Below are positions 44,165 to 61,137 of a DNA stretch of 64,000 nucleotides, piece after piece. Within the stretch, counting starts at the first letter, position 1. Every line of letters starts with the position of its first letter. Position numbers and translations under genes: made by a program. The stretch comes from Candidatus Magasanikiibacteriota bacterium (GTDB taxonomy: Bacteria; Patescibacteriota; Patescibacteriia; Magasanikbacterales; UBA922). The notes under the pieces are model-generated. The model was not told where the DNA came from and ran no database searches. It saw only the letters and a program-made list of their open reading frames with translations. The DNA is taken from NCBI GenBank assembly GCA_052034405.1, contig JBPOIO010000020.1:9699-73698 (forward strand), written 5' to 3'.

Positions 44165-44239
44165 GCCGAGATAGCTCAGCGGTAGAGCAGCTGTTTTGTA
44201 AACAGCGGGTCGCAGGTTCAAATCCTGTTCTCGGCTCCA
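44165..44239 (+). tRNA. tRNA-Thr (anticodon UGU), CCA encoded
   Basis: Manual cloverleaf: acceptor GCCGAGA/TCTCGGC, anticodon arm GCTGT-TTTGTAA-ACAGC, T-loop TTCAAAT. Confidence 0.85.
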
Positions 44240-46180: not shown

Positions 46181-46256
46181 GCTGCCATAGCTCAGTTGGT
46201 AGAGCGCGGCCATGGTAAGGCCGAGGTCTCCAGTTCAATCCTGGATGGCAGCTCCA
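46181..46256 (+). tRNA. tRNA-Thr (anticodon GGU), CCA encoded
   Basis: Cloverleaf: acceptor GCTGCCA/TGGCAGC, anticodon arm CGGCC-ATGGTAA-GGCCG. Confidence 0.85.
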
Positions 46257-46260
46257 AAAT

Positions 46261-46287
46261 GAAAACCGCTCATTCAAGCGGTTTTTT
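46261..46287 (+). terminator. Rho-independent terminator; first copy of a direct repeat
   Basis: AAAACCGCT-CATTCA-AGCGGTTTTTT. Confidence 0.6.
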
Positions 46288-46337
46288 CATATATTATACG
46301 TTAAAATAGCATAAATGTTATACATATTAACGTATAA

Positions 46338-46366
46338 TTGACAAAAACATGTTAATATGATATAAT
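46338..46366 (+). promoter_or_regulatory. Consensus sigma70 promoter TTGACA-17-TATAAT for fic, flanked by an inverted repeat TATACGTTAA/TTAACGTATA
   Basis: Perfect hexamers. 10-bp IR arms at 46297-46306 and 46328-46337. Confidence 0.6.
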
Positions 46367-46396: not shown

Positions 46397-47269
46397 ATGA
46401 ATAAAATCAGCAAAGATCGAATTCAAGACCTCAAAGAACAATATGACCGTTTACGCATAGGTAAACAGGCTCTTTTGAAGCTTATTGATGAGTCTGAGAT
46501 AGCAGAAAATGTGTACAATTCCAATGCTATTGAAAATTCTACTTTGACACTCAAAGAAACCGAAAAGATTCTTCTTGAAATGGAAGTGTCACGGGATGTA
46601 AGTTTGCGTGAAGTTTTTGAAGCAAAAAATCTTGCTCGCGTTGTTGAATATATACGAGAAAAATCTGCAAATACTGAACTCGACAAAGAAGTGATCATGC
46701 TTTTACACAAAATGCTTATCAGCAATATCGATGACGATATTGCAGGAAGATTTCGCAAAAGCGGAGAGTATGTGCGAGTCGGTACACATATCGCCCCAGC
46801 GCCAGAACAAGTAGAAGGATTTATTGAAAGAGCACTGATTGAATACTCAAAAGATTTGGAAACATTTTTTTCAGACAAAGTAGCTCGTTTTCATTTGCGT
46901 TTCGAACACATACACCCTTTCTGTGATGGAAATGGAAGAATTGGACGAGTGCTTATAAATTATCAACTTCAACGTCTTGGTTTTCCATCTATTATTATTC
47001 GTGATAAAGAAAAACAAGTGTATTATCAAGCATTTCGAGATTTTGACGATAAAAATGTAATGAAAAGCATGGAACGAATTTTGGCTTTGTCTATTATGGA
47101 GTCTTTGCATAAAAGAATTGCGTATCTCAAAGGAGAAACTATTATCACTTTGAGTGAATATGCAAAAAATCAAGAAAAGTCTATTCATACATTGTTGAAT
47201 GCTGCTCGTCGACAAACAATTCCTGCTTTTCGAGAAAAAGGCGTTTGGAAAATTGGGGTTGAAGTATAA
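46397..47269 (+). CDS. fic: Fic-family protein (AMPylation/Doc fold)
   Basis: Canonical HPFCDGNGRIGR active-site motif. Confidence 0.8.
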   Translation: MNKISKDRIQDLKEQYDRLRIGKQALLKLIDESEIAENVYNSNAIENSTLTLKETEKILLEMEVSRDVSLREVFEAKNLARVVEYIREKSANTELDKEVIMLLHKMLISNIDDDIAGRFRKSGEYVRVGTHIAPAPEQVEGFIERALIEYSKDLETFFSDKVARFHLRFEHIHPFCDGNGRIGRVLINYQLQRLGFPSIIIRDKEKQVYYQAFRDFDDKNVMKSMERILALSIMESLHKRIAYLKGETIITLSEYAKNQEKSIHTLLNAARRQTIPAFREKGVWKIGVEV

Positions 47270-47308
47270 GTGCAGTTCTAACGTCACAGGTTATTCGGCT
47301 CACAAATT

Positions 47309-47336
47309 AAAACCGCTTATTTCAGCGGTTTTTTTA
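47309..47336 (+). terminator. Rho-independent terminator; second copy of the direct repeat
   Basis: AAAACCGCT-TATTTC-AGCGGTTTTTTT. Stem identical to the hairpin at 46261. Confidence 0.6.
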
Positions 47337-47422
47337 TGCTCAAGTCGCAGTTTTATACTTATTCACAATGTAACTTGTTTATATAATTATAAAATGTAGA
47401 CTATGGAAGTAACTTATATTGT

Positions 47423-47938
47423 ATGAACTTATATAAACAAAGCACATATGAAACTTGTTTGGCTGTAAGTCTTTTACATATATTAGATATTGTTCCAAAT
47501 AGAAAAAAAGAAATTGAGATTTGGCGGAAAGGATGGAATTTTAACTTTTTGGAAGGTCAACTCAATGCGGTGGTTGGTCAATATTCTGTTTCATTAAATG
47601 TTTTTGTGGGTAGTAAAATCTATGGAGAGTATCTTTGTTCCCATGTTTATTCGAATATTCATATTATCCATCAAAAAATTGATAGTAAATTTATTTTTTG
47701 TTTAGTAAAAGAAAAACCTATAATAGTGTATCTTGATAACTATTTTCTTCAAAAAAAACTTCATGCCCCTCATTTTGTTGTAGTTCTTGAAAGCACTCAA
47801 AAATGTTTGAAAATTTTTGATCCATGGGATGGACGAGAAAAACTTATTTCATTGAATACTTTTCAAAAAGGTGTGAAAAGTTTAGAAACCTATCTCAAAT
47901 TTAGTCCAATAGTTATACAAAGGACTGATTTAGGGTAG
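47423..47938 (+). CDS. C39-like / papain-fold cysteine peptidase domain protein (candidate)
   Basis: QSTYETCLAVSLLHIL (Gln...Cys), HFVVVLES (His) and FDPWDG (Asp) occur in C39 order and spacing. Confidence 0.4.
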   Translation: MNLYKQSTYETCLAVSLLHILDIVPNRKKEIEIWRKGWNFNFLEGQLNAVVGQYSVSLNVFVGSKIYGEYLCSHVYSNIHIIHQKIDSKFIFCLVKEKPIIVYLDNYFLQKKLHAPHFVVVLESTQKCLKIFDPWDGREKLISLNTFQKGVKSLETYLKFSPIVIQRTDLG

Positions 47939-47998
47939 ATAGACAAAATATATTCAATAAGTTACACTTATCTCATAAACTGAAATCTTTCACTATTT

Positions 47999-49060
47999 AT
48001 GAATACCGATGAAGTCGTTATAAAAGAGTCTTTAATTGATGGAAAAGGTATTTTTGCGTCCCGAAACTTTAAACAAGGAGAAGTGATTTTGCATTGGGAT
48101 ACTACTCAAGTTATAGATAAAAGTGAGTTAAAAAAACTTGATGAAGAAGAAAAAAAGTATATAACGCTCGTAAATGGTCAGTATACCAAAATGCAAGAAC
48201 CTGAAAAATTTGTAAATCACTCCTATAATCCCGATACTTACGTAAAAAATTTTTGTGATGTAGCTCTTCGAGATATTTCAGAAGGGGAGGAGATCACAAG
48301 TGACTATACTGATAGCTTACCTCCAAATACGGTGATACCGTGTAATTGTGGAAGTAAGCGTTGTAGAAAAGTTATTACCAATATGAAATTCTTATTACAA
48401 CAAAGTGATTTTGCCGCTATTCCATCACAAACTGAACGATTAGATGAACGGCACCAGACGAGCGAGCCAATGGAGATCGTCTGTTGTGGCCTGCCAATTC
48501 AAGTACTTAGTGGTGTATATAAAACTTCCGCAGATACGGAACTTATGGCAGACACAGTCAAAATTGAGCTTCACCAGACCTTTTTGGAAATAGGTTGTGG
48601 CACGGGTATAGTGTGTATCTCTTTGGCAAAAAAAGCTAAATCAGGAGTTGGAGTAGATATCAATAAACTTGCGGTTGAAAATAGTAAATTAAATTTTGCT
48701 CGACATAGTAGCATAAATAATGTTGAATTTTTGGAATCAAATCTTTTTGAAAATGTACAAGGACAATTTGACGTCATTATATGTAATCCACCATATAACA
48801 ACAATAATGCCAAAGATAATATAGATAAAATGTTTTGGGATGCAAAAGATGACATGAAACAACGTTTTTTCAAAGAAGTAGGGAACTATTTAAAAGAAAA
48901 TGGACGAATATATTTTGGTTGGGCCAACTTTGCAGATTTAGATCTCTATTTGCCATTTCGTTTAGCAGAAGAAAATGGATTTGAAGTGGTAGATGTTCAA
49001 AGTCGTCCTTCGAAGAGTAAAAATTGTTTATTTTATGTTTTTGAGTTTAGAAGAAAGTAA
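47999..49060 (+). CDS. SET domain fused to an NPPY-type class I methyltransferase (PrmC/HemK-like)
   Basis: N-terminal GKGIFA...NHSYNPDT...EEITSDY plus post-SET CNCGSKRCR. C-terminal LEIGCGTGI (motif I) and ICNPPY (motif IV). Confidence 0.7.
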   Translation: MNTDEVVIKESLIDGKGIFASRNFKQGEVILHWDTTQVIDKSELKKLDEEEKKYITLVNGQYTKMQEPEKFVNHSYNPDTYVKNFCDVALRDISEGEEITSDYTDSLPPNTVIPCNCGSKRCRKVITNMKFLLQQSDFAAIPSQTERLDERHQTSEPMEIVCCGLPIQVLSGVYKTSADTELMADTVKIELHQTFLEIGCGTGIVCISLAKKAKSGVGVDINKLAVENSKLNFARHSSINNVEFLESNLFENVQGQFDVIICNPPYNNNNAKDNIDKMFWDAKDDMKQRFFKEVGNYLKENGRIYFGWANFADLDLYLPFRLAEENGFEVVDVQSRPSKSKNCLFYVFEFRRK

Positions 49061-49075
49061 TCATAATTTTATTTT

Positions 49076-49663
49076 ATGGACCAGCAAAGACTACAACAAA
49101 TTATAGATTTCATGCGTGTTACGGATCAAATGAAGTTGATTTATCGAACCGTCGAAATATCTACCAATGAGCGTGGAGAAAGCGACGCCGAGCATTCTTG
49201 GCACTTGGCACTTTTGCTTATGTTACTCGAAAAAGATTTGCCACAAAATATTGATAAAATTAAACTCTATAAAATGCTTGTTATGCATGATATAGTAGAG
49301 ATTTATGCGGGAGATACACCACTTTACGACGATGTTGGAAGAATGGATAAAGCCCAGCGAGAGGCCGAGGCTGCTAAAAAATTATTTTGCCAACTTCCGG
49401 GAGATCTCAAAGAAGAGTTTTTTTCTTTATTTAACGAATTTGAAGCACGGGAAACATTGGAAGCAAAAATTGCAAAAGCGTTTGATAAAATTCATCCTCT
49501 TATTCAAAACTTGTGTTCGAACGGGACAGATTACAGAAATTTTCATGCTACTTATGACGATGAAAAACAGAGAATCGAAAAATATGTCGATTTTGATCCT
49601 ATTTTGAAGCAGATTTCGGACTTTCTTCTTGATGATGCAAAAAAATGTGGGTATATACAATAA
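49076..49663 (+). CDS. HD-domain phosphohydrolase (YfbR-like 5'-nucleotidase family)
   Basis: SWHLALL...MHDIVEIYAGD. Confidence 0.6.
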   Translation: MDQQRLQQIIDFMRVTDQMKLIYRTVEISTNERGESDAEHSWHLALLLMLLEKDLPQNIDKIKLYKMLVMHDIVEIYAGDTPLYDDVGRMDKAQREAEAAKKLFCQLPGDLKEEFFSLFNEFEARETLEAKIAKAFDKIHPLIQNLCSNGTDYRNFHATYDDEKQRIEKYVDFDPILKQISDFLLDDAKKCGYIQ

Positions 49664-49670
49664 AAATTTT

Positions 49671-50018
49671 ATGCAACATCAAATGAAACTTTTACCAGGA
49701 CCTTTTGAAAAAATAAAATTTGGATTCAAAATTATTGAAATTCGTCTTTTTGATGAAAAACGACAACAAATTCAGGTGGGTGATACGATTGAATTTTCAT
49801 TGTTACCTGACCTTACTGAAAAGATATTTGTTGAAGTCACTGGCCTTTTACGATATGCTTCTTTTCGTGATCTTATTGTTGGGTGTGGAATGGAGCCTTT
49901 TGGGTATTTAAGGGAATATCCGCAGGAAGATTTTTTACAAAGTATATATACGATTTATTCAAAAGAAGATGAAGAAAAATATGGGGTACTCGGTATTCAA
50001 ATAAAATTGTGTAATTAA
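49671..50018 (+). CDS. ASCH (PUA-like) domain protein
   Basis: Small beta-barrel pattern LLPGPFEKIKFGFKIIEIRLFD...VGDTIEF. Start taken at the ATG after the upstream stop. Confidence 0.4.
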   Translation: MQHQMKLLPGPFEKIKFGFKIIEIRLFDEKRQQIQVGDTIEFSLLPDLTEKIFVEVTGLLRYASFRDLIVGCGMEPFGYLREYPQEDFLQSIYTIYSKEDEEKYGVLGIQIKLCN

Positions 50019-50027
50019 ACCGAATAT

Positions 50028-50441
50028 ATGGAAAACAGACCAAAGGTAGGAGTGGGTGTTGTTATTATGAAAGATGGGAAAGTACTTTTAGGGAAGAGAA
50101 AAAATGCGCATGGGGAAGGTTCGTGGTGTTTTGCAGGAGGGCATTTGGAATATGGAGAATCATGGGAAGAGTGTGCAAGAAGAGAAGCTCTTGAAGAAAC
50201 TGGACTTACCATCAAAAATGTCCGTTTTGGTACTATCACCAATGATATTTTTGAAAAAGAACAAAAGCACTATATCACTCTTTATATGCTCTGTGAGCCA
50301 GATGTCGGTCAGGTGACTGTAATGGAACCAGAAAAATGCGAAGGGTGGGAGTGGTTCGACTGGGACAATTTACCTCGACCTCTTTTTATCCCGATTGAAA
50401 ATCTTTTGTCTATGGGATATAACCCATTTCAGTCAAAGTAA
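50028..50441 (+). CDS. NUDIX hydrolase
   Basis: Nudix box GGHLEYGESWEECARREALEETGL. Confidence 0.8.
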   Translation: MENRPKVGVGVVIMKDGKVLLGKRKNAHGEGSWCFAGGHLEYGESWEECARREALEETGLTIKNVRFGTITNDIFEKEQKHYITLYMLCEPDVGQVTVMEPEKCEGWEWFDWDNLPRPLFIPIENLLSMGYNPFQSK

Positions 50442-50496
50442 AATATACGTAGTTAAATATGTTAATTATTGTATTTAAAGATATTGTTCAATCACT

Positions 50497-51252
50497 ATGA
50501 AAATAGTTTCTTTAAACACCTGGGGAGGGCGAGCGAGTCTTGAAAATTTGTTACAATTTTTATGTTCTTATAGTGATGTGGATATTTTTTGTTTACAAGA
50601 AGTATGGGGTGGGGGCGAAGATACAGTAAGAAAGCTTTTTTCAGATGAAAATATAAATGAAGTAGAATGGAATCTTTTACAAAAAATAAAAATGGCGTTA
50701 CCAGGTTATAATGCTTATTTTCGTTGTAATTTTTTTGATTTTTTTGGGTTGGCTATATTTGTGAAAAAAGAAATTCATATACTAGAAGAAGGAGATGCCT
50801 TTGTTTATAACGAAAAGGGATATTTTTCAAAAGAAGAATTTGGCGATCATGCTCGCAATATTCAATATATCTGTATTGATACGAATGAAGGTCCTCGGAC
50901 TATTATTAATTTTCATGGTCTTTGGGATGCAATGGGAAAAGGAGATACAAAGAATCGTATATTACAATCTGAAAAAATTTTACAATTTGTAAAAACAATA
51001 CAGAATCCATTTGTTTTATGTGGAGATTTTAACTTGCTTCCAGATACACAGAGTATTCAAATTTTTGAGCAATATGGTCTTAGGAATTTAATTCGAGAGT
51101 ACAAAATAAATTCTACACGAACGAGTTTCTATACCAAGTCAGTGAAATTCGCCGATTATGCCTTTGTGAGTGAAGGTATTCAGGTTGTAAATTTTTTGGT
51201 ACTTCGAGATGAAGTTTCAGATCACTCTCCACTGCTTTTAGAATTTGAGTAA
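50497..51252 (+). CDS. Endonuclease/exonuclease/phosphatase (EEP) family protein
   Basis: LNTWGG...CLQEV...SDHSPL motifs. Confidence 0.7.
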   Translation: MKIVSLNTWGGRASLENLLQFLCSYSDVDIFCLQEVWGGGEDTVRKLFSDENINEVEWNLLQKIKMALPGYNAYFRCNFFDFFGLAIFVKKEIHILEEGDAFVYNEKGYFSKEEFGDHARNIQYICIDTNEGPRTIINFHGLWDAMGKGDTKNRILQSEKILQFVKTIQNPFVLCGDFNLLPDTQSIQIFEQYGLRNLIREYKINSTRTSFYTKSVKFADYAFVSEGIQVVNFLVLRDEVSDHSPLLLEFE

Positions 51253-51286
51253 ATATTTTAGAATAGTATATATACAATTTATATTT

Positions 51287-51715
51287 ATGGATAGCAATTA
51301 CAAAAAAGTACATTTTGGTATTTATGGTATCGCCCAAAAAGACGGAAAACTTTTGATGATCAAAAAATCTCGTGGTCCATATATTGGACTTCTCGATCTT
51401 CCAGGTGGAAGAATGGAAGAATGTGAGATGGTAGAAGAAACATTGATTCGTGAGTTGCAAGAAGAGACGTCGGCAACTGTCAAAAGCATGCAATTTTTTG
51501 ACTTTGCAGAATATAGGTGTGTATACGAAGAAAATGGCGAAACAAAATATTTTCACCATATTGGACTTTATTTTTTGCTAGATATTGAGGTTGAAAATTT
51601 GAAAGAAGGGGCTGATGGTCATGATTCAAATGGGGCCGAGTGGATTCCACTTCCACTTCACGAAAATATGATTGCTCCAATTTTGAAAAAACCTTTGAAA
51701 ATGTATTTAAAATAA
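51287..51715 (+). CDS. NUDIX hydrolase
   Basis: Nudix box GGRMEECEMVEETLIRELQEETS. Confidence 0.75.
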   Translation: MDSNYKKVHFGIYGIAQKDGKLLMIKKSRGPYIGLLDLPGGRMEECEMVEETLIRELQEETSATVKSMQFFDFAEYRCVYEENGETKYFHHIGLYFLLDIEVENLKEGADGHDSNGAEWIPLPLHENMIAPILKKPLKMYLK

Positions 51716-51724
51716 ATTTTTGTT

Positions 51725-52339
51725 ATGCCAGAACAAGAACAGTTACAAAATCCGGAGATCAAAGAAAAATATAATGGAAGTTATGGTATCGTTATAAAAC
51801 CAGATATCTCTACAGGAGAACAGTCTCTTCGACTCGCTAATGAATTAACTCCAAACGCCGAGTATAAAGTGACGGTTCCGCATCTCACACTGTATCATGG
51901 AAATATTTCTAATCTTCCACTCGACAAAGTTCAAGAAATTCTGAGGTCAACACAAGAAATGCTTCGCGATAACATTCACGATCTTCGAGATATTCAAGTC
52001 TTTGGTGGAAAATTTGTGTTCTGGGATGTTATCAAAAACAAGAGTATGCGGCAGGCACATGATATTGCCCTTGGACTTTCGAAATTTTTAGATAGGGAAA
52101 AACTTGCTCGTGCACTTCAGGAGGGTTTAAATCTTACTGAAGAACAAAGACTCAACATGGAACAATTTGGTCATCCATTGGTAGGTGATTTATATCGTCC
52201 TCATATAACTTTATCCTATGATTCTCAAGGAATAGTTTTGCCTGAAGATGTTCAATCATGTGATTGGCGCATGAATGTAAACAATGTTCATTTTGCTGAA
52301 ATTGGAAAATACGGAAGCGTCGCTAAAATTATTTTATAG
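51725..52339 (+). CDS. 2H phosphoesterase (LigT / 2'-5' RNA ligase-like)
   Basis: Two H-x-T/S-x motifs: PHLTLY and PHITLS. Confidence 0.6.
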   Translation: MPEQEQLQNPEIKEKYNGSYGIVIKPDISTGEQSLRLANELTPNAEYKVTVPHLTLYHGNISNLPLDKVQEILRSTQEMLRDNIHDLRDIQVFGGKFVFWDVIKNKSMRQAHDIALGLSKFLDREKLARALQEGLNLTEEQRLNMEQFGHPLVGDLYRPHITLSYDSQGIVLPEDVQSCDWRMNVNNVHFAEIGKYGSVAKIIL

Positions 52340-52365
52340 GAGTGTAAGGAATAGTATAAAGGCCT

Positions 52366-52947
52366 ATGTTGAAATTATTTAAAATTATAAAATATATACT
52401 TTTTACAGGTATTCTTGTTTGTGTTATTACTGCCACAGTGATTATTTGGGATGGGCTTCATGATAATATTCACCAAAATGATGCAATTGTAATATTGGGT
52501 AATAAAGTAGAATTGACAGGTAAACCTTCACCACGATTGTTGAGTCGATTGGAAAAAGGTTTTGAGTTGTATCAAAATAAAACAGCCCCACTCATCATAG
52601 TTACAGGTGGAACTGGGGTGGAAGGATTTGATGAAGCAAAAGTGATGAAACAATATCTTGTTGACAAGGGTGTTCCTGAAGATGTTGTATTTGTAGATTC
52701 TCAAGGAGTCGATACTTTTTCAAGTGCAAAAAATATACAGAAAATTGTGAAAGAGAGAAATATAAAGTCTGTATTGGTAGTAAGTAACTATTATCATATT
52801 TCTCGTACGGTTTTTGCTTTTAAAGAAAATAATATTCTTGAAGTATATTCGGCTCATGCCAATTTTTTTGAATGGAGAGATATGTTTTCAATACCTCGAG
52901 AAGTGCTTGTTTTTTATTTTTATATATGGAAACAAATAAACTCATAA
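52366..52947 (+). CDS. DUF218 (YdcF/ElyC/SanA-like) protein
   Basis: N-terminal TM helix; ILGNKV...IIVTGGTG...FVDSQGVDTF. Confidence 0.55.
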   Translation: MLKLFKIIKYILFTGILVCVITATVIIWDGLHDNIHQNDAIVILGNKVELTGKPSPRLLSRLEKGFELYQNKTAPLIIVTGGTGVEGFDEAKVMKQYLVDKGVPEDVVFVDSQGVDTFSSAKNIQKIVKERNIKSVLVVSNYYHISRTVFAFKENNILEVYSAHANFFEWRDMFSIPREVLVFYFYIWKQINS

Positions 52948-53645
52948 ATTTAAAATTTCGAAAATATTCTCTTTTAGAATTTTGGATATATTATGTTCTC
53001 TATACTCCTGCAATTTATGCAGCTGTATTGTTTTTTCTTTTTTTACTTTTGATTCTTGTTGATTTTGTTTTTGATTCTATTTTTAAATTTTCACTTATCC
53101 CATTTTTTGTATCAAAATATGCACAATCGTTGATTCCCAATAATGAATTTATTTTGGTTATATTTGGAGTTTTTCTTCTTTCTATTTTTATTGGACTCTT
53201 TGCAAAATTTTTCAAATCTTATAGAGCCGAGTGTGTGATTGATGAAAGCGCAAAAACTGTTTCTGTTCAGATAGATCAAAAACCATACAGTGATATAAAA
53301 TTTGTAAAAACTTTTTGGTATTTGCCCTTCGTATTATTCCGTACTCTTGGACGTGGTTTACGATTTTCGGTGTATGCTCTGTGGCTTCGCTATGAGACAA
53401 GGCAAGGAGAAAAAGGATATCTTCTTTTAGAAGATGGATCATTTCTTGATATAAAATTAAATTCTCGATATCAAAAAATTGTTGAGATGGAAGATTATGT
53501 GCATGTTATTTCGCTGTTTTTCAATTTGGGTTTTTTGACCGTTCCTCTCCATGCAAAATTTTTGCGTAGAAAAAAGTTTCTTTCTTGGTTTGTTTGGATT
53601 GTGTTGGGTATTTGTTTTGTTGTTTTGATCGTAACGAAGTTTTAG
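52926..53645 (+). CDS. Hypothetical membrane protein
   Basis: Multiple hydrophobic helices. Start uncertain (52872 or 52926); overlaps the previous gene. Confidence 0.35.
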   Translation: METNKLINLKFRKYSLLEFWIYYVLYTPAIYAAVLFFLFLLLILVDFVFDSIFKFSLIPFFVSKYAQSLIPNNEFILVIFGVFLLSIFIGLFAKFFKSYRAECVIDESAKTVSVQIDQKPYSDIKFVKTFWYLPFVLFRTLGRGLRFSVYALWLRYETRQGEKGYLLLEDGSFLDIKLNSRYQKIVEMEDYVHVISLFFNLGFLTVPLHAKFLRRKKFLSWFVWIVLGICFVVLIVTKF

Positions 53646-53670
53646 TTTTTATAGCGTATTCCATCTATTT

Positions 53671-54072
53671 TTGAAATATATGAGTGAAAGAAAAATGAGA
53701 GATGCATTTGGTATGGATATATTTTATCGCCCTCTTGAAAGAAATCGTGAGGAAATTATAAGAGCTATTGAAATTGCAAATACATCAGGATTTTCTATTC
53801 AAGTAGATTTTATTCTTTCGCCAGAAGTTCGTCCTGCATTACTCCAGATTTTGGCATATACAAATGAAAGGATTCTTTCTCTGACTCAGGTAGGAAAAAA
53901 TCTTTTAAAAAATATAGAGAATATTTCAGATGGTGATACAATTTCTTTAGAAATTTCCCCAAAGTTTGGTGATAAAAGTTTATTTCCGTATAAAAATAAG
54001 ATAGACTCTCTCGTAAAGATTTTGTTATCGTCAAGTCGATTAGAACTTAAAAAATCAAAACAGTACAAGTGA
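53671..54072 (+). CDS. Hypothetical protein
   Basis: 133-aa ORF with no recognisable motif, good coding density. Confidence 0.35.
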   Translation: MKYMSERKMRDAFGMDIFYRPLERNREEIIRAIEIANTSGFSIQVDFILSPEVRPALLQILAYTNERILSLTQVGKNLLKNIENISDGDTISLEISPKFGDKSLFPYKNKIDSLVKILLSSSRLELKKSKQYK

Positions 54073-54795
54073 TTTGATTTTTGAAAATTCTCGATGGGGT
54101 TCAAGAACATAAAATACTTTTGTATTCAAAAATGATTCTGAGAAAAATACAGATTTTTGAGGATCATTTGTATTGTCAGAAACTTTGGGAAAAGAGAGAG
54201 CAATTCCTTTTTCATTTTGTGAAAAACAGTAGCTGATACGATCGTTGTTCAAACTTTTTATATCTTGGTTGACAGAGTGTTCGTAGGGCTTTGAAAAATC
54301 AATAACAAGAATTGATTTTTTCCAAAACAAAAGAGTCCGAGTGAGTTCGAGACTTGTTTTGGATATCTGTATTTTGTAGGGAGAAAAATAATCCCAACGA
54401 AAAAAGATAAGAAGAGATTGGCCTATCGCTATAATGAGTACAATGCCCAAATAGGTCCAGAGTATAAAACTGGGTATTTGTGTGGCAAGAAATGTACTGA
54501 TGCTGTTTTCGGGTAAGAAGATTGGTTTTTCCATGAGCCAGTCAAGACAGAGGAGCAAAAATGCTCCACCGGCAAGGATACTGAGGATAAAAGAACTTGC
54601 AAATACAAAAGTAAATATGGATTTGAAAAAGGGAACTCTTAGTGCACGAACATATTTTTGACCATCGACTCCATAGGTAAAAATTGGACCTTGTTTGTTT
54701 TTTTCTCGTGCCTTGAAAATAAAAATATGGAGGTAGAGGACCAATAGAAAGCTGAGTCCCAGCAGACAAAGAAGTATGATTTTTGAAACTGTCAT
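54055..54795 (-). CDS. Hypothetical polytopic membrane protein
   Basis: Five or six TM helices. Confidence 0.4.
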   Translation of the reverse strand: MTVSKIILLCLLGLSFLLVLYLHIFIFKAREKNKQGPIFTYGVDGQKYVRALRVPFFKSIFTFVFASSFILSILAGGAFLLLCLDWLMEKPIFLPENSISTFLATQIPSFILWTYLGIVLIIAIGQSLLIFFRWDYFSPYKIQISKTSLELTRTLLFWKKSILVIDFSKPYEHSVNQDIKSLNNDRISYCFSQNEKGIALSFPKVSDNTNDPQKSVFFSESFLNTKVFYVLEPHREFSKIKSLVLF

Positions 54796-54800
54796 AAAAA

Positions 54801-55241
54801 TTATTCAAGAAAAAGTCTTTTGGTATCTGCCAAGATGGCCTTTGGGTCTTGTTTCCAGGCGTCGGAAACATCGGCATAGAGTTCAAGCTCATTACCGTCG
54901 GGATCAAGAATATAAATACTGTGAGTCACTCCATGATCAGCTGTTCCAATGATTGTTACATTTTTTTCTTTGAGTTCTTGGTATACTTTTTTGGCGTCTT
55001 CTGCTGAGTCACCAATTTTGAATCCGACATGGTAGAGTCCTGGTTCTGCAGATGCTGGGTGTGTGGGTTTTCCACCAACTTCTATCAAAAGCATTTCGTG
55101 ATGATTGCGTCCTGCCGAAAAAAGAGCGATTCCTTCTTCTCTGTGAATTTCACGAAATCCAAGTATGTCGCGATAAAAGTCGGCTACGAGTGTGAGATGA
55201 GATACATAAAAGACAATATGACCGAGTTCTTGAATTTTCAT
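54801..55241 (-). CDS. VOC-family (glyoxalase/bleomycin-resistance/dioxygenase) protein
   Basis: Paired beta-alpha-beta-beta-beta modules; HVGFKI...HSIYILDPDGNELELY. Confidence 0.7.
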   Translation of the reverse strand: MKIQELGHIVFYVSHLTLVADFYRDILGFREIHREEGIALFSAGRNHHEMLLIEVGGKPTHPASAEPGLYHVGFKIGDSAEDAKKVYQELKEKNVTIIGTADHGVTHSIYILDPDGNELELYADVSDAWKQDPKAILADTKRLFLE

Positions 55242-55365
55242 AAATATAATGAATATTTTCGTTTGAAACAAAGGTATCTTAGCGGTATATAAAGTGTTTT
55301 GTCAAACAGTGTATTTTTATAAAAAAAAGAGACAGCAATTTTTGCTGTCTCTCTATTTTTATCTT

Positions 55366-56031
55366 TTATATATGTCCACCAAAACATTGAAATTCAAATG
55401 GATGGAGTGCACAGTAATTTTGTACGATTGGAGCTTGAAGTTGAATATTTCTTTCGAGTAGAATTTGGTTTATTTGAAAGTTTCCGTTATTGATTCCGTT
55501 GGTACAATTTGCATTGCAGACCATTTTTATATAATACATATCGTCACCGTGTGCTTGTACATGTGGGCGCATTTTGGCCCAATCAAGAGGAGGGGCAAAA
55601 GTATATCGATAAGAACGGTTTGACTCTGACATACCACCATCAACATCTTTGACTATCAGTGGTCTATAAACAACACTCAGTACGTTGTTTACATTTTGAA
55701 GCGTTCCATAATAAAAATTAAATTTGGCTTTTTGTCCTGCAAGAAGTGGAGAATTTCCAAGAGAGAATGTGATTCCTGAAAATTTTTGGATTCCTCCAAT
55801 ATATACAGAAGAAGGGTTATTTTGTGGAAATCCAGGAATAGGAGCAAACCAATCGACGTCACCAATAAGGTCATTATCTTGTGCATCGAGGGTATCATCA
55901 TTCCAGAAATTTCTGTCATCTGCATATCCATAAGAATCTACAGGGTTTTGTACCAAAAAGGCCTTTGCCTTGAGATTTGGGTAGAGACTGATGATAAATA
56001 TCGCTACAATGAGAAAAAATATTTTTTTCAT
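55366..56031 (-). CDS. Secreted hypothetical protein
   Basis: Signal peptide MKKIFFLIVAIFIISLYPNLKA. No known motif. Confidence 0.45.
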   Translation of the reverse strand: MKKIFFLIVAIFIISLYPNLKAKAFLVQNPVDSYGYADDRNFWNDDTLDAQDNDLIGDVDWFAPIPGFPQNNPSSVYIGGIQKFSGITFSLGNSPLLAGQKAKFNFYYGTLQNVNNVLSVVYRPLIVKDVDGGMSESNRSYRYTFAPPLDWAKMRPHVQAHGDDMYYIKMVCNANCTNGINNGNFQINQILLERNIQLQAPIVQNYCALHPFEFQCFGGHI

Positions 56032-56040
56032 AAAAAATGC

Positions 56041-57801
56041 TTAGTACCTCTTTTTGGCAAATTTTTTGCCACGTGTGCGTTCTTTGAATATTTGTGGCCG
56101 TGGAGCAGAAGGTCGTGATGTTGCATGTGCTACACTTGTGTGTACTTCCGCACTTGCTGGAGATACAGGCATTTCTCCGGCAGGTTCTATTCGAAGACTG
56201 ACACCATTTATTATGCGATTATTGAGAGCATTCATGAACATGGTCATACGGGTTTTGTCGATTTCAAGTACTGTACTGTCGGCATCGAGTTTGATATCTC
56301 CAATTTGAATACCTTTGATATTTTTTTGTGAGTTTACGATTTCAAAAAGTTTTGGTACAGAAAAACCCTGGCGTTTTCCAATGTTCATGCGCATTTTGGT
56401 CATGCCTTCTGGATTATAAGGGCGTGGTTCAAACAATTTATTTTTATATGCTGATGGTTTTGGATCTTGAATTACGCTACTACGAATATCTGGAAGATTT
56501 TTATAAAAGTTGATAAAGCGGCCGAGTTCGACACTCACAAGGTGATGAATAAGTTCTTCGCGTGTGAGATGTGACAACTTTTCTTCAATGATTGGCATGT
56601 ATTCACTCATGTCTATATCATCACTTTTTGCTGTAGTAATTTTTTCTACTACTTGGAGGAGTTGGGCAGTGCAGATATCTTTTGCTGTTGGAATCATTTT
56701 ACTTTTGAAAACAATACCTGTTTTGCTTTCAATCATTCGAAGCATGTATTTTTCACGCAGGTTGATAATTGCAATAGAAGTACCGTTACTTCCAGCACGG
56801 CCTGTTCGTCCACTGCGGTGTGTATAGTGATCGGTTTTTGTTGGAAGGCCATAGTGAATGACGTGAGAAAGTTCTTTGACGTCGATTCCACGAGCCGCGA
56901 CATCTGTTGCTACCAGAATCTGAATTTGGCGATTGCGAAATGCGGCCATAACTTGTTCACGTTGACCCTGAGAAAGTTCACCACTAATTGCAGCAGCTGT
57001 ATATTTTTCTTTCATGAGCTGCGCGGCAATATGTTGGGTTTCAACACGGGTATTACAAAAAATAATACCATAAATATCTGGGTGCACATCAAGAATACGC
57101 TTGAGTGTTTCGTATTTATCTTTTGCCTGTACCATGTAGTATTCATGGTCGATGGTTGCTGAGCCTTGGTTTTTTACAGAAGTTGAAATTTCTTTTGGAT
57201 TTTTCATGTAGGTCTTGGCAATGCGTTCAACCGTACGATCCATCGTTGCAGAAAACAGCAAAGTTTGTTTGTCTGCTGGTGCTGTTTCAAGGATAGCATC
57301 AAGTTCTTCTTTGAATCCCATTTTCATCATTTCATCGGCTTCATCGAGGATAAGCCATGAAATGCTGTCGATTTTGAGAGTACCACGTTTGACCATATCA
57401 AGAGTACGTCCTGGTGTTCCTACTACGATCTGTGGACCTGCAAATAGGGCGTTGTATTGCGTCACATAGCTATCTCCTCCGTAAATTGCAGCGACTTTGA
57501 TTGCTGGAAATTCAGACAAGAATGCCTTGATATCTTTGCTAATTTGAAGACAGAGTTCGCGGGTAGGGCAGAGGATCAGGGCTTGTGGACGTTTGATTGT
57601 TTCGTCAATTTTTGACAAAACTCCCAAACTAAAAGCACCGGTCTTTCCAGTACCAGTTTGAGCAAGGGCAATGAGGTCTTGGTGAGAGTTTAAGATGTGT
57701 GGAATAGCCTGGGCTTGGATTTCGGTAGGAGTTTCAAAACCAAGTTTTGTAAGTGCTGCGAGAATTTCTGGGCGCAGTCCCAGTGTAGAAAATGTAGCCA
57801 T
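56041..57801 (-). CDS. deaD: DEAD-box ATP-dependent RNA helicase (DeaD/CsdA-like) with a C-terminal RNA-binding extension
   Basis: AQTGTGKT, PTRELC, DEAD, SAT and HRSGRTGR motifs. Start taken at MATFSTLGL. Confidence 0.85.
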   Translation of the reverse strand: MATFSTLGLRPEILAALTKLGFETPTEIQAQAIPHILNSHQDLIALAQTGTGKTGAFSLGVLSKIDETIKRPQALILCPTRELCLQISKDIKAFLSEFPAIKVAAIYGGDSYVTQYNALFAGPQIVVGTPGRTLDMVKRGTLKIDSISWLILDEADEMMKMGFKEELDAILETAPADKQTLLFSATMDRTVERIAKTYMKNPKEISTSVKNQGSATIDHEYYMVQAKDKYETLKRILDVHPDIYGIIFCNTRVETQHIAAQLMKEKYTAAAISGELSQGQREQVMAAFRNRQIQILVATDVAARGIDVKELSHVIHYGLPTKTDHYTHRSGRTGRAGSNGTSIAIINLREKYMLRMIESKTGIVFKSKMIPTAKDICTAQLLQVVEKITTAKSDDIDMSEYMPIIEEKLSHLTREELIHHLVSVELGRFINFYKNLPDIRSSVIQDPKPSAYKNKLFEPRPYNPEGMTKMRMNIGKRQGFSVPKLFEIVNSQKNIKGIQIGDIKLDADSTVLEIDKTRMTMFMNALNNRIINGVSLRIEPAGEMPVSPASAEVHTSVAHATSRPSAPRPQIFKERTRGKKFAKKRY

Positions 57802-57992
57802 ATGGTAAAAATTACGCACATGACTACTGGAGTGTCTTTGGAACCCTTCCAAAAATATTCACTTGAATCAAGTACGAAGTATAAATTGACTTGGAAGTAT
57901 ATCTGAAATTGAGGCAAATGTCAAGTCTTTTAGTTTACGAAAACTTGAAATAAGCGTATAATACGCTATATTTGTAACTTTAAAAGCATCTT

Positions 57993-61041: not shown

Positions 61042-61112
61042 GCCTCCTTGGTTCAGTGGTAGAACGACGGTATCGTAAACCGTATGCGCCAGTTCGATTC
61101 TGGCAGGAGGCT
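61042..61112 (+). tRNA. tRNA-Thr (anticodon CGU), CCA not encoded
   Basis: Cloverleaf: acceptor GCCTCCT/AGGAGGC, anticodon arm ACGGT-ATCGTAA-ACCGT, T-arm GCCAG-TTCGATT-CTGGC. Confidence 0.75.
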
Positions 61113-61137
61113 CAAGAATATGTTATACTTATAACAT

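Follow-up and report, generated by a model that had tools for sequence, protein, structure and literature searches.

On the forward strand of a 64,000-nucleotide stretch of a Candidatus Magasanikiibacteriota contig (the whole of which is called the window here), a single intact open reading frame (ORF) at 47999–49060 runs from an ATG start to its stop codon and encodes a 353-residue protein that joins a SET domain to an NPPY-type methyltransferase (MT). The explanation that we favour, and consider fairly likely, is a recent fusion of two autonomous methyltransferases at a cassette junction within a variable gene array of the Candidate Phyla Radiation (CPR), with a SET half that is probably impaired in the window. 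Under this explanation, loss of the stop codon between two neighbouring genes would have created the fusion, and a single transcript would yield two largely autonomous S-adenosylmethionine (SAM)-dependent enzymes in equal (1:1) amounts. The MT half would methylate an amide or amine nitrogen, most likely of a protein glutamine or lysine as HemK2 does, and the SET half would methylate protein lysine, an activity presumably weakened or lost in the window through the replacements C76Y and N79D. Separate synthesis of the MT might, in addition, start from the ATG retained at codon 129. Both halves are held under purifying selection, with omega at 0.22 for SET and 0.09 for MT.

A seamless join of two complete proteins

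Pfam mapping places both halves of the ORF, which is 100% identical to protein P0001 from a 74.6-kb NCBI contig, well above their thresholds. The SET family (PF00856) matches residues 15–103 (E=1.5e-13; 51.5 bits against a cut-off of 22.4; profile positions 1–104 of 105), and the "methyltransferase small domain" MTS (PF05175) matches residues 179–306 (E=2.1e-19; 70.2 bits against 23), a region also matched by overlapping class-I MT families. The motifs that a preliminary description had read from the letters are all present: G15-K-G17 within GKGIFA, N73-HSYNPDT-80, E97-EITSDY-103 and the post-SET cluster C115-N-C117-GSKR-C122 in the first half, and motif I (E197-IGCGTGI-204) and N263-PPY-266 in the second.

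Each half corresponds to an entire protein that occurs elsewhere by itself. Residues 1–128 (47999–48382) equal a complete standalone SET protein of about 128 residues, of the kind found in CPR bacteria and DPANN archaea and carrying a post-SET CxCx4C cluster, and residues 129–353 (48383–49057) equal a complete standalone CPR N-methyltransferase of about 220 residues, of the HemK2/MTS type with an NPPY motif. The junction lies at 48377–48385 and includes the M129 codon (48383–48385). Since M129 aligns with the start methionine of the standalone MTs (P0004–P0007; MDYKFTLEQSDF, MKFILEQSNF and similar), and since the standalone SET proteins terminate 0–5 residues past the "…VI" that precedes the junction, the alignments indicate that two complete proteins have been joined end to start without a seam. 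In the AlphaFold2 model of the MT half, the sole linker is that enzyme's own N-terminal coil of about 11 residues.

The same junction, KVITN(M/I)KFLLQQSDF (…CRKVITN followed by MKFLLQQSDF… in the window), was recovered in-frame in three further proteins when databases were searched for the fusion, giving four assemblies in all. These are P0002 (locus L001, from an ENA assembly), P0003 (Logan and ENA) and P0507 (on a 15.6-kb Logan contig). They are about 80% identical to the window in nucleotides, with many synonymous differences, and have ATA (Ile) at codon 129 where the window has ATG. Because the same in-frame junction is found in independent assemblies at this degree of divergence, the comparison indicates that the fusion is real and not an assembly artefact, and that the gene is one ORF, not two.

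A rare and recent architecture

The building blocks of the fusion are common, and the fusion itself is rare. With the whole protein as query, about 170 clusters were retrieved, and all but P0001–P0003 were standalone Patescibacteria MTs of about 220 residues that covered query residues ~130–353 at 50–83% identity. When residues 1–128 were used instead, at least 200 clusters of standalone SET proteins of about 128 residues appeared, from CPR bacteria and DPANN archaea; the preliminary view that bacterial SET proteins are uncommon does not hold for this lineage. Among 1.84 billion representatives of 50%-identity clusters searched with phmmer, the query's own cluster alone spans both halves. No fusion was found in 185,579 GTDB species genomes, where the nearest match, to the MT only, was in a Ca. 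Magasanikiibacteriota genome at 67%. Viral contigs contained neither the fusion nor any relatives, and a phage origin was rejected on that ground. Two proteins with two-stretch matches that were suspected of being independent SET+MT fusions (P0294 and P0385) are actually SET–SET tandems, and the nearest unfused MT (locus L007), suspected of belonging to a split SET–MT pair, has an upstream ORF that is not SET. A literature search found no description of a SET plus HemK-type architecture and nothing relevant on SET in CPR bacteria. The SET plus HemK2-like architecture is apparently undescribed before and confined to one shallow clade.

Within that clade, the fused state seems to come and go. 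The nearest standalone SET protein, P0121 of locus L008, is 83.6–85% identical in amino acids to the window's SET half; in the comparison with the other fusion, the figures are 83.6% for P0121 against 76.6% for the other fusion's SET, and in nucleotides 90% for the L008 gene against 80%. In neighbour-joining trees, which carry no support values, the window's SET half pairs with P0121 to the exclusion of the other fusion, and P0004, a standalone MT, branches in a near-trichotomy with the MT halves of the two fusions (81–83% identity). Because these standalone forms nest among the fusions, the fused state appears to be recent and labile, having been gained or lost inside a clade that is only about 20% divergent.

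Comparison with L008 also points to how the join arose. The window and L008 are the same locus in related organisms, and their nucleotide homology covers 47939–48377 at 90.9%, then resumes at 56041–57606 at 84.9% (L008 5548–7107). Between these flanks of 85–91% identity, gene content has been wholly replaced (window 48378–56040; L008 1091–5547). The window's 7.7 kb holds the MT half, HD_3, ASCH, NUDIX, EEP, a second NUDIX, a 2H-like gene, DUF218, a glyoxalase-family gene and ORFs without Pfam matches, while the 4.5 kb of L008 hold HIT, Methyltransf_23, PAP2, a DDE transposase and hypothetical genes. Since the homology with L008 ends 6 nt before the M129 codon, the domain junction falls on a gene-cassette breakpoint.

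Fusion to other partners has also occurred in these families. The small SET family is found as ABC_tran+SET, Ser_hydrolase+SET and ASCH+SET proteins and as SET–SET tandems, and the MT family is fused to a GNAT acetyltransferase (P0274, P0316, P0290, P0327, P0294 and P0385 are the proteins with such fusions or tandems). That the same small families are joined to such diverse partners suggests a pattern of opportunistic read-through fusion in arrays.

The SET half

The two halves were modelled separately with AlphaFold2, each with about 70 homologues. The SET model is confident, with a predicted local distance difference test (pLDDT) of 93.1 and a predicted template modelling score (pTM) of 0.85, and Foldseek matches it to the solved SET domains of MLL1–4, NSD1–3 and ASH1L at probability 1.00 and TMq 0.69–0.81. 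Aligned by phmmer to the SET domain of MLL1, the half gives E=2e-11. The assignment of the N-terminus to the SET fold is thus borne out, and by inference from homology this half would methylate protein lysine.

Its signature motif has been altered, however. In the family alignment (A4; 69 members, the window and 68 relatives), the segment NHSYNPDT at residues 73–80 (48215–48238) deviates at C76Y and N79D, two positions kept in 68 of 68 relatives, and the window alone has Y76 and D79. The preliminary description quoted this motif correctly but missed its departure from the family-invariant NHSC. The window therefore lacks an intact NHxCxPN signature (NHSYNPD). The L001, P0507 and L008 copies all retain NHSCDPNT, which leaves the sister fusions L001 and P0507 motif-intact. 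With L001 as the outgroup, six replacements are specific to the window's SET half, and three of them (C76Y, D77N and N79D) fall within NHSCxPN. By homology to NHSCEPN and CNCGAKKC of MLL1, C76 is the predicted fourth ligand of the post-SET zinc site. Mutation of the equivalent cysteine in SUV39H1, in work from Rea and colleagues in 2000, reportedly abolishes activity. Because the putative zinc-ligand cysteine and an invariant asparagine have both been lost, activity of the window's SET half is probably reduced or absent; the sister fusions, with NHSC, look intact.

Other features of the domain are kept. EEITSDY at residues 97–103 (48287–48307) contains the catalytic Tyr103, which is at least 90% conserved in A4, and aligns to GEELTYDY of MLL1. 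The post-SET cluster C115-x-C117-x4-C122 (48341–48364) is invariant in A4 and aligns to CNCGAKKC of MLL1.

A further possibility is that the SET half has, in the window, become a non-catalytic N-terminal domain, either decaying or repurposed, and that the product is essentially an MT, made either in the long form or from the ATG at M129. The clustering of C76Y, D77N and N79D within NHSCxPN, unique among the 69 family members, would fit such decay, as would the ATG kept at codon 129 in place of the ATA of the other fusions. Moreover, the genes of the array lack Shine–Dalgarno motifs, so the AT-rich context of this internal start is no worse than that of the real ones. Nevertheless, the coding sequence is free of frameshifts and stop codons, just 2 of the 30 conserved positions are altered, and the half evolves at omega 0.22–0.26 (0.26 against L008), consistent with purifying selection. 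Also in place are GxG, N73, H74, Y103 and three cysteines of the zinc site, and the AlphaFold2 model is confident, though alignment-driven. On balance we regard outright decay as unlikely, if worth keeping in view beside the favoured explanation of two enzymes with an impaired SET partner.

The methyltransferase half

The AlphaFold2 model of the MT half (pLDDT 97.5) is a class-I Rossmann fold that matches NPPY-type methyltransferases. The half is strongly constrained (omega ~0.09) and keeps all the invariant positions of the family alignment (A5), namely GCGTG, the motif-II aspartate, NPPY and a WD pair. Motif I, EIGCGTGI at residues 197–204 (48587–48610), would form the SAM-binding loop, with G201 and G203 invariant in A5. 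NPPY at residues 263–266 (48785–48796) is the putative catalytic motif IV, its N and P invariant and its Y at least 90% conserved.

The preliminary label "PrmC/HemK-like" is true at the superfamily level and goes astray below it. The half scores 74.7 bits against a cut-off of 199.1 for the PrmC equivalog model TIGR03534, no Pfam match to PrmC_N (PF17827) was found in it, and in the model the Rossmann core is preceded by a single helix and a beta-hairpin only. Since the score is so far below the cut-off, PrmC_N was not found, and another CPR genome (locus L012) has a canonical PrmC as a separate gene, the MT half is, by these comparisons, not PrmC. The best NCBIfam models are near misses on both counts, the archaeal PRK14968.1-3 (130 bits against 162) and HemK2/MTQ2 TIGR00537 (80.8 against 87), and NCBI labels some members of the family, such as P0074, as HemK2/MTQ2. 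N6AMT1/HemK2 is the one structure that is colinear over the full length (positions 40–221 of the 224-position family profile with N6AMT1 residues 8–202), and it also gives the tightest Foldseek superposition (6kmr, 9fke and 6h1d; root-mean-square deviation 2.6 Å, TMt 0.77–0.79). The half is thus best described as a HemK2-like (N/D)PPY N-methyltransferase that falls below the family cut-offs, with protein glutamine or lysine as its most likely target.

A different class of target could conceivably be served. The MT half might be a nucleic-acid or small-molecule N-methyltransferase, acting for instance on rRNA or tRNA (N2-methylguanine, m2G, or N6-methyladenine, m6A), on DNA (m6A) or on an amine in the manner of the aminoglycoside enzymes, and the fusion would then pair unrelated activities. 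Searched against the PDB, the family profile does rank MJ0882 (85.6 bits), GenN (83.6) and RsmC (75.3) above PrmC (65) and N6AMT1 (54.8), with METTL5 also scoring below the first three, and the lowest Foldseek E-values are to GenN and the carbamoyl N-methyltransferase Asc-Orf2. The Pfam families Eco57I and N6_Mtase match just above their cut-offs, and the PADLOC model mad2 matches at 89.9 bits, in the catalytic core only (profile positions 273–426 of 492). Against this stand the colinearity and superposition found with N6AMT1/HemK2 alone and the archaeal PRK14968 and HemK2/MTQ2 models as best in NCBIfam. The segment VYxTSxDTELM, which we take to resemble the HemK-family motif upstream of motif I, counts on the same side. 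A DNA N6-adenine methyltransferase, or mad2 of a MADS system, was rejected as a candidate, for only the core is matched and 225 residues leave no room for a target-recognition domain; no other MADS or restriction–modification model matched the ten array proteins scanned with PADLOC. A nucleic-acid or small-molecule target accordingly appears doubtful, to about the same degree as decay of the SET half, and the HemK2-like assignment is preferred.

Two members of the MT family differ in an unusual way. Genes from independent samples (L031 3627–4478 and L032 849–1700) have an in-frame TAG at the family's conserved tyrosine (…ADIDV*LPLRLA…) and a cysteine-rich C-terminal tail (CICG…CLTEGC). The TAG may reflect read-through, recoding or a pseudogene; for the tail, a zinc ribbon, perhaps Trm112-like, is conceivable. 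Recoding by genetic code 25 was ruled out, as the stop is TAG and not TGA.

Do the two halves belong together?

The preliminary description went further and proposed that the fusion coordinates lysine and glutamine (or adenine) methylation of a translation factor, ribosomal protein or host target. Nothing specific supports coordinated dual methylation of a translation factor. The fusion occurs in one shallow clade with standalone forms nested within it, standalone SET and MT genes mostly have unrelated genes beside them, and the window's SET motif is damaged. A functional SET–MT link of some kind is nonetheless plausible, given an independent adjacency found among the neighbourhoods of 11 independent SET lineages and about 20 MT clades, sampled from families of roughly 400 SET and 1000 MT members.

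The fusion clade makes up one of the 11 SET lineages. At L025, a gene of another SET subfamily (139 residues, no post-SET cysteines) lies 26 nt upstream of a gene of the same MT family, and at L015 an orthologous pair is split by a 3-kb insertion. Two further lineages adjoin other class-I MTs, with a 4-nt overlap at L049–51 and in the order SET–HIT–Methyltransf_23 at L008; the L049 MT was suspected of belonging to the window's MT family, and its lack of NPPY ruled this out. No class-I MT was found in the operon of the SET gene in the remaining seven of 11. One of those seven, L012, has its canonical PrmC 2.4 kb away with four genes between, a proximity judged to be coincidental. Viewed from the other partner, SET is directly upstream in only about two of the 20 or so MT clades, and about 18 have no SET nearby. 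A rough binomial estimate for the recurrence gives P = 2e-4 to 0.06, by assumed background rate, which is suggestive and not conclusive. No conserved neighbours were found around the standalone MT in eight genomes.

Some other neighbours were seen along the way. At L020, genes neighbouring the standalone MT were assigned by eye, from N-terminal sequences, to DnaB and EF-P. A SET gene followed by a HIT-family gene occurs in two SET subfamilies (L008 712–1562, P0121; L042 3727–4583, P0390) and could represent a further conserved pair. L025 (1–3700) and L015 (1–2400) share, upstream of the SET-like gene, several segments of about 75 nt at 92–96% identity with no long ORFs. Because this shared region looks like a tRNA/rRNA cluster, SET would lie just downstream of RNA genes in these loci too.

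How far might the adjacency be taken? One possibility is a dedicated dual writer, in which SET and the NPPY MT act in coordination on the same target, such as a release factor or a ribosomal or nucleoid protein, at lysine and at glutamine or lysine. The purifying selection on both halves in two fusion lineages fits this, as do the L025 and L015 arrangements and the small SET genes beside other class-I MTs at L049–51 and L008, and HEMK2 itself acts on both glutamine and lysine (PMC10804810). Still, a single 50%-identity cluster among 1.84e9 representatives, standalone forms nested inside the clade, the seven SET lineages and ~18 MT clades without a partner, a partner MT family that differs from case to case, the loss of invariant catalytic-motif residues in the window and the want of any linked translation-factor gene all count against it, and we hold it to be somewhat less probable than either alternative weighed above. 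Less probable again is the broader idea of a two-enzyme protein-methylation module, SET with a CPR HemK2-like MT, that was assembled independently at least twice, as the fusion and as the L025/L015 gene pair, and sets lysine and glutamine or lysine marks on the same substrate. The notion that two adjacent genes were merely merged by a sequencing or assembly error has next to nothing left to it, for although the window is a metagenome-assembled contig and the junction falls exactly at a gene boundary, the same in-frame junction occurs in at least three other independent assemblies at ~80% nucleotide identity with many synonymous differences.

The favoured explanation, a recent and largely opportunistic fusion with an impaired SET half in the window, has several observations weighing against it. 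The trees that suggest a recent origin have no support values, and the fusion persists across lineages dS ~0.7–1.3 apart with neither half decayed. The ratio of nonsynonymous (N) to synonymous (S) changes is not raised on the window branch (6N:7S against 12N:8S; Fisher P = 0.49), and inactivation of its SET half is predicted solely by way of homology to MLL-type SET domains. Finally, a second clade (L025 and L015) pairs a different SET subfamily with the same MT family. Pure accident would be an unlikely source of such recurrence, so selection for function, and not mere tolerance, may maintain the pairing.

The weight of the locus depends on which of these holds. In CPR bacteria and DPANN archaea, small methyltransferases of these two kinds form large families, for neither of which an assigned function was found, and fusion together with independent adjacency offers a "Rosetta-stone" hint of a common target. 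If a shared target proved true, this would be the first prokaryotic "dual writer" to join a SET fold with a seven-beta-strand fold, and it could reveal the role of the widespread ~128-residue SET and ~220-residue HemK2-like families in ultra-small CPR and DPANN cells. The fusion is also a ready-made construct for biochemical tests. Should the link be merely opportunistic, which we judge more likely, the protein would be a mere oddity of domain architecture, not a new system. Its locus nonetheless shows how multidomain proteins can originate in streamlined genomes, where a cassette boundary becomes an in-frame domain junction in dense, shuffled arrays.

The surrounding array

As the preliminary description noted, the gene heads a co-directional array, with tightly packed genes on the same strand down to about 54 kb. 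Downstream, at 49076–54072, lie HD_3, ASCH, NUDIX, EEP, NUDIX, 2H-phosphoesterase-like and DUF218 genes together with ORFs that have no Pfam match, and a DEAD/DbpA helicase gene on the reverse strand (56041–57852) forms the conserved distal flank of the variable region. Relative to L001, which is otherwise collinear, the window has a 2.2-kb insertion (49062–51283) that carries HD_3/YfbR-like, ASCH, NUDIX and EEP genes.

Directly upstream of the start codon is a near-invariant element of 60 nt (47939–47998) that exceeds the coding sequence in conservation among the window, L001, L008, L009 and L010 (alignment A1). It holds an invariant 25-nt sequence, ATAAGTTACACTTATCTCATAAACT (47957–47981), with the palindrome ATAAGT-TAC-ACTTAT. 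One copy is present in the window, and elsewhere the element occurs only in loci of this SET clade. Hairpins predicted in it are weak (z = -1.9), no Rfam match was found, and its position and conservation make it a probable promoter/operator or leader.

Farther upstream, a tRNA-Thr(GGT) gene (46181–46256, forward strand) has its 3′ end and terminator duplicated 1047 nt downstream. The 40-nt direct repeat D1 (46251–46290 and 47298–47337, 83% identical) consists of the tRNA-Thr 3′ end and terminator hairpin, and its two copies bracket a 1-kb cassette with a Fic gene (46397–47269), a perfect promoter (TTGACA-17-TATAAT, 46338–46366) and a protein that matches PADLOC SoFic and PDC-S04. This layout looks like a tRNA-targeted insertion with an att-like duplication. 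The distal copy belongs to a degenerate tRNA-Thr 3′ half with terminator hairpin (47273–47337, forward strand), an att-like remnant identified from D1, alignment A6, a terminator scan and BLAST. The degenerate 3′ half (T-arm, acceptor and CCA) and terminator are conserved upstream of the SET gene in L001 (637–698), L008 and L009 (599–660); with L010 (117–178), the remnant lies just 5′ of the SET promoter in four related loci whose contigs carry no intact tRNA. It may be an ancient attachment-site remnant at the start of the variable array. Besides this tRNA-3′/terminator repeat, no attC-like or repeated cassette-boundary elements were found in the array. Because of the comparisons with L008 and L001, the upstream element and the tRNA-Thr repeat, the gene is best seen, from sequence comparison, as the head of a tightly packed, co-directional and quickly shuffled array at a tRNA-linked hotspot.

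Several smaller observations concern the same region. Three tRNA-Thr isoacceptor genes (TGT, GGT and CGT) occur within 17 kb, at 44165–44239, 46181–46256 and 61042–61113. G+C content falls from ~0.38 to 0.31–0.34 over 46–54 kb, coinciding with the variable array. A C39-like peptidase gene (47423–47938; weak matches to DUF3335 and Peptidase_C39) lies downstream of the tRNA remnant and ahead of the SET promoter and looks inserted, because it is absent there in L001, L008 and L009. The ASCH gene (49670–50006) recurs in L011 at 73% nucleotide identity, downstream of another standalone SET, and the 2H-phosphoesterase-like ORF (51725–52339) has weak matches to DUF1045, 2_5_RNA_ligase2 and anti-CBASS Acb1. 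Two array NUDIX genes match the PADLOC candidate PDC-S07. PADLOC found no complete defence system, with matches at the domain level only (the mad2 core, SoFic/PDC-S04 for Fic and PDC-S07 for NUDIX).

Comparison with known systems

The SET half resembles Go1-SET of Methanosarcina mazei, a small standalone SET protein that methylates the chromatin protein MC1-alpha (PMC3980110). The likeness lies in its length of about 128 residues, the GxG, NHS and ExxxDY motifs and the post-SET CxCx4C cluster, while the closest solved structures by both sequence and fold are the SET and post-SET domains of MLL/KMT2. Unlike Go1-SET and MLL, the window's SET is fused to a second methyltransferase and has Y for the zinc-ligand cysteine and D for the invariant asparagine. 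To our knowledge, CPR bacteria have neither histones nor MC1.

For the MT half, the nearest counterpart is HemK2/Mtq2/N6AMT1 (KMT9), a eukaryotic and archaeal methyltransferase of the release-factor GGQ glutamine and of H4K12, which works with Trm112 and methylates both glutamine and lysine (PMC10804810). Shared features are the compact class-I form of ~200–220 residues, NPPY, the lack of a PrmC_N match, full-length colinearity and a matching fold. Unlike HemK2/Mtq2, the MT half is bacterial, from CPR, is fused to SET and, at 80.8 bits, falls short of the TIGR00537 cut-off of 87. Its segment after NPPY reads MFWD…, as against the …WAGG… that we take to be present in HemK2. No Trm112 partner turned up in the 64-kb window, though no search aimed at Trm112-like genes was made. 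With PrmC the half shares the NPPY motif and the class-I core (profile ~65 bits to the E. coli and T. maritima HemK structures; Foldseek 2b3t), and it differs in having no Pfam PrmC_N match and in its score of 74.7 against 199.1 for TIGR03534. No prfA gene was seen adjoining the fusion gene.

As a bifunctional design, the protein recalls PrmC/TrmB (NCBIfam NF002421) and RlmKL/YcbY (PDB 3v97), which surfaced among the NCBIfam and Foldseek matches and likewise carry two SAM-dependent methyltransferase modules on one polypeptide. In those enzymes, both modules have the Rossmann fold and the arrangement is widely conserved, whereas here a SET beta-fold is joined to a Rossmann fold in one shallow clade.

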